Positions 1,210 to 10,008 of a DNA stretch of 13,292 nucleotides are shown piece by piece (the stretch's first letter is position 1; each line of letters opens with the position of its first letter). Under the pieces are notes generated by a model. The model had not been told where the DNA came from and did not search any database. It was given only the letters and a program-made list of their open reading frames with translations. Position numbers and translations under genes: made by a program. Source of the stretch: a virus; the UHGV virus genome UHGV-0196552; one strand, given 5' to 3'.

Positions 1210-1758
1210 TGTTTTAATAACGGTTCAAATGTCGTAATTAAGGTTAAATTGGGTTTTTATGGGGTTGATTAGTGTTGCTTGCACTAGATATAGTATCTAA
1301 AATGAGTTAAAACACACTATATATGGGGTGTCCCGAATTTCGACACCATAATTAGAAATTATTAAGACCTCTTGTACTACGTCCAAATCGGTCTTTGAGT
1401 GCCTACACTCCCTGCGGTCGTATAGTCACTGAAAAACAAATTAAACCGATCCTTGCGTTTTTTCTCGCTAGTACTCGAAAAGAACTAAGGGATTTACTCG
1501 CTTTCGCTCAGACAAGTAACAGTACTGACTAAACTATTGGGGGTCGGCATATGGCCTAAAGTTCGCTTCGCTCTTTTTGAAGTATCTACGCGGGCTAAGC
1601 CCTTGTTGGGGTTATCGGGCTGTTTAAGCCCTTACTGAAGTCATCAAATCCTCTAACGACACGAAGCAGTACTATCAAGTTACATACATTAAAGTATGGA
1701 ATGTCAATGAGTTGAGTTGTCCTCTAAGTCGAGAGAAGGGCACATGTACATAGAAATA
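1210..1758. other. structured non-coding region between convergent genes; candidate sRNA or regulatory locus
   Basis: No ORF of 60 aa or more on either strand in the track. GC visibly higher than flanks. Hairpin GGTGTC-N9-GACACC at about 1327-1347. Direct repeats CGCTTTCGCTC (about 1499) and CGCTTCGCTC (about 1565). Two near-identical hairpins CGGGCT-A-AGCCCTT (about 1591) and CGGGCT-GTTTA-AGCCCTT (about 1616). Confidence 0.3.
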
Positions 1759-2704: not shown

Positions 2705-3433
2705 ATGAACAGAAAGCAATTCATCCAGTCACACGGAGCTACTTGCAGTAACTGGACGTGGAGTTGGTCATTTGTTAACCATGAAAAGAAGATGGTCATC
2801 TTTGGGTCATGGGATGTTGAGAGTGAACAAGAGCGGTCTGTAATACTCCGGGAGAAATGGGAATACAACTCAAACAACAAAAAACAACCGGGATACACCC
2901 AGGCACTGGAACACATCCGTTTAGCCCATGAAGGCTACGAACTTTACACCTTCAATATGGTTTTCGCAGAACACCCTGAGAATCCTGAAATTGCAGTAAT
3001 CAAGGATTTTGAGCGTAAATTAAACAAGCGATATCTTCGTAAAGAAGGTGTTGTTTGGTATGCAGACTTCTTACCTAATCCATTCCCTGATGAAATTCCT
3101 TCAGGAGAGAGTTTTGTTGAAGGTGCAAAGACTCAAGTAACAGTGAACTACTACGAACGCGATCCAAAGGCCAGACAAGCCTGCATCCAGCATCACGGTA
3201 CTGCCTGTAAATGCTGTGGCTTCGATTTTGAGAAGGTCTATGGTACACATGGCCGTGGGTTCATTCATGTACATCACATCAAGCCGCTTCATACGATTGG
3301 GGAAAACTATGTGGTCAATCCCGTAACAGATATGATCCCATTATGTCCAAACTGCCATGCAATGGTACATCACGGAAGCGAAGTACTTCCAATTGCAGAT
3401 TTGAAAAAGAAAATGACATTCTGGAGCGAGTAA
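2705..3433 (+). CDS. McrA-like HNH nuclease: about 170-aa N-terminal domain of unknown function plus C-terminal HNH (beta-beta-alpha-Me) motif
   Basis: Strong RBS AGGAG 5 nt before ATG 2705. C-terminus contains CKCCGF...GFIHVHHIKPL...LCPNCHAMVHH, the classic Cys-pair, HH, Cys-x2-Cys-His HNH signature as in McrA-type enzymes. N-terminal domain is Trp-rich (WTWSWSF, GSWD). Confidence 0.75.
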   Translation: MNRKQFIQSHGATCSNWTWSWSFVNHEKKMVIFGSWDVESEQERSVILREKWEYNSNNKKQPGYTQALEHIRLAHEGYELYTFNMVFAEHPENPEIAVIKDFERKLNKRYLRKEGVVWYADFLPNPFPDEIPSGESFVEGAKTQVTVNYYERDPKARQACIQHHGTACKCCGFDFEKVYGTHGRGFIHVHHIKPLHTIGENYVVNPVTDMIPLCPNCHAMVHHGSEVLPIADLKKKMTFWSE

Positions 3434-4225
3434 ATGGATTTATCACAATTGAGCAACGTCGAATTGATGCAACTGAATCAGTTGACGCTTGATGAGTTAG
3501 AACGACGAGAGGTTATCAGAACCAGAAACAATCCTATCAGTGAGTACACTGAATGGCTGGTTGCGGATAAGATGCAAATGGTACTGGCTGCACCTAGTAC
3601 TAAAGGGTATGACGCTACAACAACTGACGATCGAAAAATTCAGATTAAGTCTCGTAAGAATAATTTAAAAAACCAATCATTAATTCTTGGGATTATCAGA
3701 AATTATGATCTGAACCAATTCGATGAACTCATTGCCGTAATATATAACCATGATTTCTCAATTCGTTATGCCATATCCATACCACATGAATTAGTGAAGG
3801 AATATGGTTTTTATAATGAGCATCAAAATGGTTACACTTTAAGAATAAGCAATTTATTACTTAACGATCCACGTGTAACAGATATCATTGAATTTATTGA
3901 CCCAGACACTGAACGTTCAAAGGAAGAGATCACGGTGAAGCCAGATTCAAACACTATCCGGGATGTACAGACAATAGGAATGCAGACATTTGTTGAGTAC
4001 TATCAGTATGTTGAAAGTGGTATGAACACAACTGATCTTGTTGAAAAGATGGTAACTGACCATCCAGAATGGAAGGAAAGTACTGCAAGAACTAAGGCAT
4101 CTTCAATGCGAAGAGTATTCAAGAATGGCGACAACATTGAAGTACTAAAAATCATCTATAAGTCGAATCACCCAGCAATAACGCATGAGATTAAGAGTAA
4201 ACTGATGACGCGTTGGGATAAATGA
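3434..4225 (+). CDS. hypothetical protein translationally coupled to the HNH nuclease; N-terminal region has a possible Mrr-like PD-(D/E)xK signature
   Basis: ATG 3434 directly follows the TAA of the upstream gene (3431-3433), with GGAG 8 nt upstream. SEYTEW...KGYD...DDRKIQIKS fits E...D...(Q/E)xK spacing of restriction-endonuclease-fold proteins such as Mrr. This is a weak, motif-only assignment. Confidence 0.5.
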   Translation: MDLSQLSNVELMQLNQLTLDELERREVIRTRNNPISEYTEWLVADKMQMVLAAPSTKGYDATTTDDRKIQIKSRKNNLKNQSLILGIIRNYDLNQFDELIAVIYNHDFSIRYAISIPHELVKEYGFYNEHQNGYTLRISNLLLNDPRVTDIIEFIDPDTERSKEEITVKPDSNTIRDVQTIGMQTFVEYYQYVESGMNTTDLVEKMVTDHPEWKESTARTKASSMRRVFKNGDNIEVLKIIYKSNHPAITHEIKSKLMTRWDK

Positions 4226-4815: not shown

Positions 4816-5325
4816 ATGAAACTCGAACATTGGGCAATTCCGATCACTTCATTGGACGGTATGTTACTCGGCGTAGAGCTGGAAACCCGTGTACTGATAA
4901 ACGGTTGCCAGGTACTGATGGGGGCAGGAAAAGAAAGTGAATATATCCGTCACGTGGTCTATCAGAACCAGTTAAGAATGATTCAGGGTAAAGCCGCATG
5001 GTTCAAAGAAAAGGGGCTGTTGTGCGTGCTCAGTACTGGCACAGGTACACGCTATGAAGATCTACCATTCATACGGTACATGGCTGCTGAACCACTGCTA
5101 ACGGACGGTTACGACTTAGTTCGACTAAATAGACGGTTCACTGAAGAACACATAGAGCGGCTGATCTTCCCGGTACTCATCAATAACATCATGCAGTACT
5201 GCGACAAGGTGATCGTACAAGTCAGCAGCAATCGAAATCACAGGATTTTACGAGAGTCGGGGGTATGGGCAGTACAGGGAGAGTACAGGCCAATCCGCTT
5301 TGAACAATGCGAACAACTTCTATAG
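4816..5325 (+). CDS. compact, degenerate EAL-like domain protein (probably catalytically inactive c-di-GMP phosphodiesterase homologue)
   Basis: Four EAL-like motifs in the right order: PITSLDGMLLGVELETR (compare YQPIVDL.TG.IVGAEALLRW), LSTGTGTRY (compare DDFGTGYSS, with DD lost), DLVRLNRRF (compare LKIDRSF), VQVSSN...VQGEYRP (compare EGVE...QGY.FSRP, with EGVE lost). Only 169 aa, shorter than a canonical EAL domain. Confidence 0.45.
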   Translation: MKLEHWAIPITSLDGMLLGVELETRVLINGCQVLMGAGKESEYIRHVVYQNQLRMIQGKAAWFKEKGLLCVLSTGTGTRYEDLPFIRYMAAEPLLTDGYDLVRLNRRFTEEHIERLIFPVLINNIMQYCDKVIVQVSSNRNHRILRESGVWAVQGEYRPIRFEQCEQLL

Positions 5326-5335
5326 GGATATAACA

Positions 5336-5608
5336 ATGAAAATACTAATCGTCATGTTGGTAGTACTGCTCACAGGCTGCGGCAGCGTACATCACTCATT
5401 CATGGATAAAGCCTTTGTCGGCAACGTTGATAACAAGGCTACAATAGTACTGTTCGACGCTGGCACACGAAACGGGGTGAAGTACTACCGGCCTCAGTTC
5501 CAGAGTGATTGTGGCCGCACCTACAATCCGATTTACCAGGTGGACAATGGCAGTACTACATGCCATATACGAGAGGAAAGAATTAAAAAAATGCATCAAT
5601 ATAGATAA
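5336..5608 (+). CDS. small lipoprotein (signal peptide with lipobox LTGC); candidate moron or superinfection-exclusion lipoprotein
   Basis: The track ORF 5300-5608 begins with a TTG shown as M. The internal ATG at 5336 has an AGGGA RBS about 7 nt upstream and begins MKILIVMLVVLLTGC, a textbook lipoprotein signal. Mature part has several Cys. Confidence 0.6.
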   Translation: MKILIVMLVVLLTGCGSVHHSFMDKAFVGNVDNKATIVLFDAGTRNGVKYYRPQFQSDCGRTYNPIYQVDNGSTTCHIREERIKKMHQYR

Positions 5609-5728: not shown

Positions 5729-6883
5729 TCAACGTAGCATGGCTAATGTTCTGGAAATTCTTATTATATCCTTCTCAATATCATCTAAAACAGGAGTTGA
5801 GTTTCTGCTTCGCTCTGCAATTTCTTGCAAAATATATCTATTTAAATGGTTGTTAACATTTTTAGGGTCAAGGTTTTCTGGTGTGGGAACAACACAGCAC
5901 TGCCAATAAAAAATCTCATCTTCAAAATGATTTAGCCATTTAGAATGATATTTTTCTTTCGATTTTTTCTTGTTAAGTACATAAATGCTAGCCGCAGCTA
6001 CCACATCCGCAATTTGTATACCATGCGTGACTTTAGAATCAGAAAGAATCATTGGCTCAGATAGCTTAAATGTGATCGGGATTTTTTTATCATGAAAAGT
6101 CTCGAACACAATCTCATCATTGCCTATCATCTCATTGAATGAGTCCTGATGAGTAATTAATGGTTTTGAGCTGTCGCATATAGCTCTCAATGTACCAAAC
6201 TTACTACTCATATCGCACAGGAGATTATAAAGAGAAGTCGTTGTCAAATCTAATAACCACTTATCAATCCCAGTACCCTCAAGGCCTTCATATTCTTCTT
6301 CAATTATAGAGATGTTATTCTTGGCGAAATCATGAATGTCCATCATAATTTCAGAATTTTTAGAACCAACAACTGGTTCGATAAAACTATTAACCAATAT
6401 TTTACCTCGTGAAAAATCTTCAAATCGCGAATGTAATAGTTCTGAATATTCATCCTTAGCTATTAAAGAAAAATACATTATATTTGAGATGAATAGGTGA
6501 AATTTAAGGTTGTAAAAAATTGAGCTTTTAGCTGCTAATACTGGCTCAAAAATATATTCGAAGAATTTTCCTGAGAGGGCATATTTTTTTTCGTTTACAA
6601 CCACACGCATACGACCACGGAAATGATTAAGTATTTCATCTACGGCTGGTTGAAATCTCTTGCTATTTACGAGAGTGCTACCTTTTAGCTCTTCGGCTGC
6701 GATCGAGTACTTGTTTATTATATAATCAACAAACTGTTTACTTTCCTCATCATCAGTCACGACTGCTGCGTAACTAAAAAAAGGCTGATCTTTTGAAAGT
6801 AAGTTATTACCAGTGAATCCTGATTCATCGAAATATACATTCTTTACCAATTTGGTCATTCCTTTATGAGCTACAATGTGCAT
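5729..6883 (-). CDS. DUF3800-family protein
   Basis: N-terminal VYFDESGFTG and C-terminal HGIQIADVVAAA match the DES and Q-x-x-D motifs I recall for DUF3800. 384 aa, very AT-rich. The start could be the ATG at 6883 or an internal ATG 8 codons downstream; neither has a clean RBS. Confidence 0.65.
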   Translation of the reverse strand: MHIVAHKGMTKLVKNVYFDESGFTGNNLLSKDQPFFSYAAVVTDDEESKQFVDYIINKYSIAAEELKGSTLVNSKRFQPAVDEILNHFRGRMRVVVNEKKYALSGKFFEYIFEPVLAAKSSIFYNLKFHLFISNIMYFSLIAKDEYSELLHSRFEDFSRGKILVNSFIEPVVGSKNSEIMMDIHDFAKNNISIIEEEYEGLEGTGIDKWLLDLTTTSLYNLLCDMSSKFGTLRAICDSSKPLITHQDSFNEMIGNDEIVFETFHDKKIPITFKLSEPMILSDSKVTHGIQIADVVAAASIYVLNKKKSKEKYHSKWLNHFEDEIFYWQCCVVPTPENLDPKNVNNHLNRYILQEIAERSRNSTPVLDDIEKDIIRISRTLAMLR

Positions 6884-7062: not shown

Positions 7063-7626
7063 TTAGCAAAGTACAACACCTATTTCATTTAACGCACAAT
7101 CGCAATGACGGTTTGTCGGACATTCGCATAATTTGAATACTGCATAAGATCCTTTAAGGGTATCGGTTACATACTTGTCCATTTCTTCAACTACAGATGA
7201 TGAGCAATATAAATGAAAACCAACACAGAAAGAATTTCGCATCGGATACTTACATTCTTGTATAGAGTTGAGTTTCAAATGGTCTGCTTGCAATCCTCTT
7301 TTTAAGGCAGATGAACGCTTAGTACATTTCAGCTCAATAAAGATATAGTCTTCAAAAAGGGTATCTTTTTCTCTCATTATTATATCGATTTTTGAGAGCT
7401 TGCTTGCAGGGAAATTATTAGGGTCAAGAAAAGCTGTAACTTCACGTTTAACTTCATATTTTCTTTTTTTGTTAAGGAAGTGCTCAAATTCAATTTGTAG
7501 CCATTTTTCCCAATCATTAGTTTCATTACTGACGAAGGAATACAGACGCCTCTTTATATCTTCATTCTTTAGGAAGCTATTCAGTAACTTTACCAGCAAA
7601 GAAAAATCATTGTTGCGGTCTGACAT
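7063..7626 (-). CDS. PD-(D/E)xK-like nuclease with C-terminal Cys cluster
   Basis: WLQIEFEHF (acidic motif I), KIDIIM (Asp) and IFIELKC (E-x-K) match restriction-endonuclease-fold spacing. C-terminal CECPTNRHCDC (C-x-C-x5-C-x-C) could bind a metal or Fe-S cluster, reminiscent of Cas4/RecB-family nucleases. ATG at 7626, 38 bp from the divergent terS start. Confidence 0.55.
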   Translation of the reverse strand: MSDRNNDFSLLVKLLNSFLKNEDIKRRLYSFVSNETNDWEKWLQIEFEHFLNKKRKYEVKREVTAFLDPNNFPASKLSKIDIIMREKDTLFEDYIFIELKCTKRSSALKRGLQADHLKLNSIQECKYPMRNSFCVGFHLYCSSSVVEEMDKYVTDTLKGSYAVFKLCECPTNRHCDCALNEIGVVLC

Positions 7627-7640
7627 AGTGATCTCAATAA

Positions 7641-10008
<2,368 letters not shown>

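Follow-up and report, generated by a model that had tools for sequence, protein, structure and literature searches.

What can 549 bp without a single gene be doing in the left arm of a temperate phage? The question arises from 13,292 nucleotides (nt) of the UHGV virus genome UHGV-0196552 (the whole stretch analysed, hereafter the window), in which positions 1210–1758 separate two convergent genes, an open reading frame (ORF) of 174 amino acids (aa) on the + strand (685–1209), which we call gene X, and one of 237 aa on the − strand (1759–2472). An earlier note on this DNA had described the gap as non-coding, unusually large and GC-elevated, and had proposed as candidates a small RNA (sRNA) or antisense regulator, a recombination or origin-like site, or a decayed gene. 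We have found that it is no dead gene but a non-coding region, conserved and modular, that goes together with gene X just upstream of it. From its anatomy and the comparison with its relatives we read it, tentatively, as a transcriptional boundary or leader that X would control and that would insulate a hotspot of cargo genes and the late packaging operon.

The gap is the largest of the window, the runner-up measuring 232 bp. Its only ORF of at least 40 aa is one of 45 aa starting with TTG, and each of the six frames contains between 10 and 16 stops. The elevated GC content applies to the centre only (0.456 at 1380–1660), the whole gap having 0.397 vs. 0.379 for the window and the 5′ third 0.322. 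All the motifs that had been listed are present where they had been placed, i.e., GGTGTC at 1327–1332 pairing with GACACC at 1342–1347, CGGGCT..AGCCC at 1591–1602 with a second copy at 1616–1631, the direct repeats CGCTTTCGCTC (1499–1509) and CGCTTCGCTC (1564–1573), and a GCG (1455–1457) followed by six T (1458–1463). These are mostly not the informative features. The T-run and the first repeat did turn out to belong to a strongly conserved stem-loop and box, while the twin hairpins are part of a tail common to some relatives only. The 1327–1347 hairpin does not hold as a unit, its 5′ arm being altered without compensation in three relatives (L001, L003 and L019), and consists of a repeated site (site 3 below) and a chance complement. 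Folded whole, the gap is no more stable than shuffled sequence (z = 0.30 for the + strand and −1.68 for the − strand).

Relatives were gathered by means of the flanking proteins and the conserved DNA pattern, which provided ca. 45 related loci in addition to Escherichia coli records. We have referred to them as group W (the window, L001–L003, L019, L028, L037, L045 and L063), group B (L004, L005, L006, L025, L032, L042, L048, L052, L057 and L061), group A (L007, L010–L016, L020, L024, L055 and L062) and, as a fourth group, the small E. coli islands L064 and L065. In all four groups an X homologue is followed by 400–800 nt without genes. The synteny is constant over the ca. 45 loci (integrase, HNH gene, X, non-coding region, variable genes, HNH-242, terS and terL), which come from viral contigs, metagenomes and the genomes of Enterobacter, Buttiauxella, Mangrovibacter and E. 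coli; the hosts are Enterobacterales. An X protein identical to that of the window was found in 149 blocks of the assembly collection, among which 24 contigs were read, and all eight places listed had the same order, yeaH, yeaG, a large serine recombinase, small genes, HNH, X, an unannotated gap of 549 bp, cargo and terminase. The features of the gap and of the genes around it are, in order along the window:

119–619, HNH/AP2-type homing-endonuclease-like gene, 166 aa, matching a phage HNH homing endonuclease (phrog_953, 6e-37)
685–1209, + strand, gene X, coding for a 174-aa orphan helical protein, with the stop codon at 1207–1209
1186–1199, + strand, site 1, CCCGAATTAAGACA, overlapping the last X codons and found at the same position in L003 and L063
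1230–1243, − strand, site 2, CCTTAATTACGACA, inverted with respect to sites 1 and 3
1265–1294, + strand, sigma-70-like match TTGATT-18-TATAGT (9 of 12 positions), a weak candidate promoter, degenerate in L019
1332–1345, + strand, site 3, CCCGAATTTCGACA, the 3′ arm of the 1327–1347 hairpin, with AT-rich DNA after it (1346–1368)
1387–1450, no strand assigned, stem-loop or palindrome U, a long irregular stem with a pyrimidine/CG-rich loop of 11–12 nt
1448–1494, + strand, stem-loop C, ca. 19 bp with conserved bulges and the loop CTAGTACT, holding the GCG and the T-run
1498–1509, + strand, pyrimidine box 1, TCGCTTTCGCTC, just 3′ of stem-loop C and corresponding to the first direct repeat
1510–1533, + strand, 3′ limit of the shared core, ..CAGTACTGAC, and principal mosaic breakpoint
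1534–1758, no strand assigned, cargo-linked tail (module 2), with a small hairpin (1546–1556), box 2 (1563–1573), the twin hairpins (1591–1602 and 1616–1631) and CAGTACTATCAAG
1759–2472, − strand, first cargo gene, 237 aa, without a family match

Stem-loops U and C and the box that follows them are retained in all relatives regardless of the X subtype. With a covariance model (R1) derived from groups A and B, each related locus, those of group W and the islands included, gave one copy and no more. In the alignment of stem-loop C, 95.1% of the cells are paired and 10 of the 19 pairs have changed on both sides (for example GAAACG/CGTTTC vs. GTAACG/CGTTAC and TTCCG/CGGAA vs. TTGCG/CGCAA), a count that a DNA palindrome would yield just as a folded RNA does. 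The covariation score was 0.29, compared to 0.097 in shuffled alignments (0 of 500) and at most 0.064 in controls with slid partners, although these statistics are inflated, since the model to which the sequences were fitted shaped their alignment and they share ancestry. The same helix was recovered by RNAalifold without the covariance model. The comparative alignment that the earlier note had suggested as a check points to a structured element whose pairs have been preserved by compensatory change beyond the controls. U and C side by side make up the minimum-free-energy fold of 1378–1499 in the window and in L019, L004, L057, L032, L064 and L065 (z between −1.0 and −3.8). The sequence of U differs among groups W, B and A, with its architecture retained. 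The wobble cells of stem-loop C (38 G.U vs. 6 A.C, or 17 vs. 6 without one constant pair) favour the + strand. On the other hand, U in group B and in the islands folds much better on the − strand (z = −4.85 and −3.46), since four A.C mismatches of the + strand become G.U there. This evidence is compatible both with RNA acting on both strands and with a palindrome at the DNA level.

The box lies at +38 to +44 from stem-loop C in every relative. Its motif, TCGCTT(T)(C)GCTC, occurs one to three times per non-coding region and nowhere else in the loci of 10–18 kb; all groups have it 3′ of C, group B also has it within the U loop, and in L025, L042 and L057 an inverted copy follows further on. The core as a whole is 78–100% identical between elements whose X proteins are only 16–42% identical or cannot be aligned. 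A core so much more conserved than X or the terminase suggests as its partner a host machine, such as RNA polymerase or an RNase, and not a phage protein that evolves fast.

The part of the region that lies next to X behaves in the opposite way, i.e., its motif switches with the X subtype and its layout is retained in all four of them. The X subtypes are remote homologues of 155–175 aa: W and B are 42% identical, W or B and the islands 15–29% (pairwise E-values of 1e-4 to 1e-8), and the X of group A is linked to the others through the islands only. In the window, the pattern CCYKAATTWMGACA has three matches in 13.3 kb (1186 +, 1230 − and 1332 +) and none elsewhere, against 0.07 expected, a count that alone would be circular, since the pattern was derived from these three copies. 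Independent support comes from group B, in which the geometry is kept with another motif, CCYGAATTAGTMC (GAATTAGTAC), with one copy at the X stop codon, inverted copies 19–39 nt on and a direct copy 142–143 nt on, compared to 146 nt from site 1 to its direct repeat, site 3, in the window. In group A the X gene is directly followed by (A)TTACGGCA(T), which is present three or four times with one copy in inverted orientation, and in the island L064 ATAACCGTA(ACTTAA) appears in → ← → order. We infer that X, which is probably a DNA-binding protein, binds 14-bp sites specific to its subtype. The group A copies form a tight cluster after X (L012 10466–10510 and L016 2965–3010) that reads TTACGGCAT ATTACGGCAT ATATCC ATGCCGTA TTACGGCAG, three direct copies and one inverted within 45 nt, the clearest operator- or iteron-like array of the family.

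Immediately 3′ of the core the relatives cease to resemble each other. Identity with the window breaks at 1533 in L001 and L063 (98.6%), at 1461 in L003 and at 1678 in L002, and the homology to the E. coli islands also ends with the core (1510–1533). Copies of the tail, whose distance from the core varies, occur in L002, L006, L008, L021 and L048, with parts of it in L001 and L063. Its small hairpin covaries (GGCAC/GTGCC in L006 vs. GGTAC/GTACC in L048), and no compensatory change was seen among the relatives in the twin hairpins. A nut-like reading of 1563–1640, where a boxA-like sequence (CGCTCTTTTT) precedes the two GGGCT..AGCCC hairpins, was considered and discarded, the boxA-like sequence not being kept in L006. 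In groups A and B ca. 190 nt of gene-free DNA separate the core from the HNH-242 gene, indicating that the window and L006 carry an insertion at this point. The 237-aa gene is replaced by other genes in L001/L063, L002 and L005, and is absent in L004 and in group A. Behind it, in the window, lie an HNH gene (2705–3433) and a DUF6998 gene, then several small genes and one with DUF3800. From the core to terS the genes look defence-like (2705–3433, 3434–4225, 5300–5608 and 5729–6883). For the DUF6998 protein the match is a methyl-directed restriction enzyme of type II (mREase_II, PADLOC 1e-62). HNH-242 matches type IV enzymes of the McrA kind and so probably has no accessory role in packaging. 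The cargo also includes a Cor-like exclusion protein and the protein with DUF3800. Its content varies both between relatives and between E. coli islands, and several cargo genes converge on the core from the right. The right end of this arm is a lambda-type packaging block with terS, a gpA-type terL, a head-tail joining gene (W-like) and the portal gene. TerS, the gene of which starts at 7665, is a distant homologue of Nu1 (23% identity over 159 aa, E = 8e-6) with the winged helix-turn-helix conserved. Nucleotide searches of the phage collection gave no match, and the closest TerL is 35% identical, with no near cultured phage.

The same core is found outside the phages. About 30 of 5426 complete E. 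coli genomes (ca. 0.6%) have an island of 7–10 kb between ffs and ybaA (6194–15761 in L064 and 6364–12988 in L065) with a tyrosine integrase, an X homologue, stem-loops U and C, different cargo, a small serine recombinase and a DUF2188 gene. U and C of the islands are 78–82% identical to those of the window over 80–120 nt, and the core together with the remote X homologue is the only homology detected between phages and islands at the nucleotide level. DUF2188 is likewise at the end of a degraded E. coli prophage that belongs to the phage family. The islands were found to have neither packaging or structural genes nor recognizable satellite functions; they may be minimal satellites or defence islands derived from the phage family.

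How these parts might work together can be proposed only with caution, and our preference for a boundary controlled by X is a tentative one. X would bind its three subtype-specific 14-bp sites (→ ← →), which begin at its own stop codon. Downstream of them, after an AT-rich stretch, the generic stem-loops U and C and the pyrimidine box would stop or process transcripts, those of the + strand coming from the integrase-HNH-X operon and those of the − strand from the reverse-oriented cargo genes. In this way the region would serve as a boundary or leader gated by X and insulate the exchangeable defence-like cargo and, behind it, the late packaging operon with terS, terL and the portal gene. A two-way barrier makes sense with cargo genes converging on it from the right. 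That U and C act in RNA, that transcription is terminated or gated or its products processed, and the direction of this effect are predictions from the sequence.

Comparable arrangements are known among the control regions of late genes, such as Q-PR′-6S RNA-tR′ of lambda, with stx-type cargo downstream, or those of the C/Mor activators of Mu. As in those cases, a small gene lies directly upstream of a non-coding control region that precedes cargo and a packaging/structural operon, and in the window the candidate promoter is ca. 200 nt from stem-loop C. Unlike them, the gap contains no conserved promoter, only the 9 of 12 match of the window. Long hairpins for processing or retroregulation (sib/tI of lambda, the RNase III sites of T7) are also similar to stem-loop C, an imperfect stem of ca. 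20 bp whose bulges are conserved and which lies downstream of the operon that contains the integrase. The length of the stem suits RNase III better than a simple terminator, and a bulged stem of ca. 19 bp is better suited to processing or atypical termination than to the role of a textbook terminator. The logic of lambda sib itself is not applicable, as the hairpin stays linked to int both in the prophage and in the excised state.

Several observations weigh against this transcriptional reading. X has no detectable similarity to known regulators and matched no known family of antiterminators or late activators (lambda Q or Mu C type). No conserved sigma-70 promoter was found in the equivalent regions of groups A and B, by a scan that would miss an activator-dependent promoter without a −35 element. 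A scan of 1000–2700 for intrinsic terminators (G+C-rich stem of 5–14 bp, loop of 3–8 nt, U-tract of at least 5 U in 8) found none, stem-loop C included; its middle is A-U-rich, its loop has 8 nt and its tail, TTTACTCGCTTT, is moderately U-rich (4 U in the first 8). The tail in group A, TTTCTTCT, has 6 U of 8, and stem-loop C could act as a weak or atypical terminator. To this must be added the inflation of the covariation statistics and the conflict of the strand evidence, C leaning to the + strand and U in group B and the islands to the − strand, which would also fit a palindrome at the DNA level. Finally, specific repeats, AT-rich DNA and palindromes are the anatomy of a replication origin too.

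An origin is, in our view, an unlikely explanation. X would be a small origin-binding initiator, the three or four repeats its iterons, the AT-rich stretch the unwinding element, and U and C generic elements facing the host, such as hairpins for single-strand initiation or primosome loading. Iteron-type origins (ori-lambda, or the origins of Staphylococcus aureus pathogenicity islands (SaPIs), found 3′ of rep) have protein-specific repeats beside the gene, AT-rich DNA and a palindrome. The gap is laid out in the same manner, with repeats directly 3′ of X whose sequence tracks the X subtype, AT-rich DNA after the last site (1346–1368 in the window, TTATATTAATATTAATT in group B and the islands), and then large palindromes in which both strands fold well. 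In this outline the gap has an origin-like layout, as had been suspected. Furthermore, the generic part is conserved independently of X, and the small E. coli islands retain exactly the integrase, X and the non-coding region. However, X is tiny (155–175 aa) for such a role and has no helicase, primase or known initiator fold or signature, the sites are only three or four, with wide and uneven spacing (44 and 146 nt), and phage origins do not usually lie where the gap does, with the integrase on one side and the late genes on the other. It is less probable that the core is the recognition and cutting site of the lambda-type terminase, common to satellite-like islands and with the hotspot beside cos as in P2/P4. 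In favour of it, the packaging genes are lambda-like (Nu1-like TerS, gpA-type TerL, W-like protein and portal), and upstream of terS there are only 38 AT-rich bases (7627–7664) after the reverse gene at 7063–7626, which makes a cos in the lambda position impossible. By eye, the arms of C and the box are three pyrimidine-rich repeats in → ← → order (CGTTCCGTTTTTCT vs. CGTTTCCGTTCTTCT), with a CGTTTCC..TTCT flavour, resembling R3, R2 and R1 of the lambda cosQ-cosN-cosB layout, and the conserved element measures ca. 200 bp, as does cos (PMC4669245). In P2/P4 the defence hotspot abuts cos, the only region common to phage and satellite (PMC9122126); here too, exchangeable defence-like genes start beside a short conserved non-coding element that, with the remote X homologue, is the sole nucleotide homology detected between phages and integrase-bearing islands. 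Differences from P2/P4 are that the islands lack recognizable satellite genes and that a cognate orphan X is present. Against a cos site, the type of non-coding region and that of the terminase reassort freely in all four combinations (W-type U with W-type TerS in the window and with A-type TerS in L019; A-type U with a TerL 90% identical to that of the window in L016 and with A-type TerS in L014). This implies that U, the group-specific part, cannot be cosN, a role for which its symmetric arms, GC-rich centre of 12 nt and lambda-like distance to the R-like repeats had made it a candidate. The shared core would also have to serve terminases just 37–44% identical with different recognition helices, from a distance (1448–1533 to 7665) of ca. 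6 kb with cargo between in all relatives. In addition, there is no IHF-type spacer between the inverted repeats, and both the wobble bias and the changes in the base pairs suggest a single strand that folds. Two contigs that end near C (L030 at −29 and L051 at −25) were considered as virion ends, but they stop where shared sequence begins and are accounted for by breaks in the assembly.

We give a similarly small chance to a free-standing sRNA gene, sense or antisense, of ca. 130–200 nt containing U and C. In its favour are the two adjacent conserved stem-loops with covariation. The sigma-70-like match at 1265–1294 would place stem-loop C ca. 200 nt downstream of the start in the window, and pyrimidine boxes are accessible both within the U loop and in the tail that follows C. 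An independent promoter conserved across the groups is what fails, together with a canonical terminator, and the favoured strand is ambiguous. Rfam gave no match at the gathering score in the window and seven related loci, and a permissive search returned only chance-level scores (E of at least 0.67). That the region is mostly a recombination scar, its conserved blocks being flanks reused in homologous recombination or homing-endonuclease repair when cargo is swapped and having no function of their own, is very unlikely. It would account for the clustering of breakpoints at 1461, 1533 and 1678, for the HNH homing-endonuclease-like gene nearby, for the tail (1534–1758) moving with the cargo and for the contigs breaking at the edge of shared sequence, but neutral flanks would not keep their pairing through compensatory changes, nor the geometry of the sites with different motifs in four X subtypes, nor remain 78–100% identical beside proteins diverged to 16–42%. 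A decayed protein-coding gene, or an attachment or tRNA-like site, has only the length of the gap in its favour and is hardly credible at the sensitivity of the tools used. Besides the stops in all frames, a translated search (blastx) of the gap against all frames of 65 related loci found only the homologous non-coding DNA of close relatives and no protein remnant, and indels of one nucleotide in the loop and the box of the conserved core rule out coding. Neither a tRNA nor a tmRNA was detected in the window by ARAGORN, and the prophage junctions map 3–4 kb to the left, next to yeaG where the enzyme is a serine recombinase and next to ffs where it is a tyrosine integrase.

The interest of a boundary controlled by X, or of any other function that the region may have, lies in its position. 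Defence genes in prophages and satellites cluster in hotspots with poorly understood edges, that of P2/P4 being cos. Here the edge of the hotspot, in a little-known phage family that is common in Enterobacter, Klebsiella-like, Citrobacter and E. coli genomes, consists of an orphan protein, its own repeat sites and two deeply conserved stem-loops. Whether this cassette gates transcription, starts replication or signals packaging bears on how cargo is kept expressed or silent and how it is swapped, and on whether the islands are mobilized by the phages. A bolder proposal, which we regard as rather doubtful, is that X with U and C is a portable and undescribed hotspot-boundary cassette of a new family of serine-integrase enterobacterial phages and of minimal E. 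coli islands, either a new packaging or hitch-hiking signal or a new structured RNA with a cognate DNA-binding protein that gates defence cargo. Were it such a packaging or hitch-hiking signal, the ffs-ybaA islands would represent a new class of minimal satellites.

Some other observations concern the surroundings of X. Positions 583–732 form a second conserved block, with 73–88% nucleotide identity even where the body of X is 42% identical or unalignable. The block covers the 3′ end of the HNH-166 gene (119–619), a hairpin GGCCTG..CAGGCC (627–654) and the first 16 codons of X (MTKKKEPHE.KKRGRK), which are AT-hook-like. The group A counterpart of the HNH-166 gene has an AP2-like DNA-binding segment, and a homing endonuclease at this place could drive the mosaicism around X. 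A search of E. coli for an intact annotated relative, in which a separate replication module could have been sought, led only to a wreck, the sole relative of group W in complete E. coli genomes (AREA_C483; L063 13201–16681 and L067 7961–12750), in which the cargo region and terL are broken by copies of IS3, IS5 and ISSen4 and by a group II intron, and the structural genes are missing.

A feature of the whole phage rather than of the gap is the palindrome AGTACT, the commonest hexamer of the window, with 49 copies vs. 4.4 expected, in all reading frames and in non-coding DNA. An enrichment in GTAC inside the gap was discarded as a special feature of it, being genome-wide. AGTACT is enriched 5–10-fold across the whole phage family (also in L008, L018, L016, L011, L014 and L055) and may be a modification or recognition motif; the degraded E. 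coli relative has a methyltransferase gene at its right end (L067 15640–16350).

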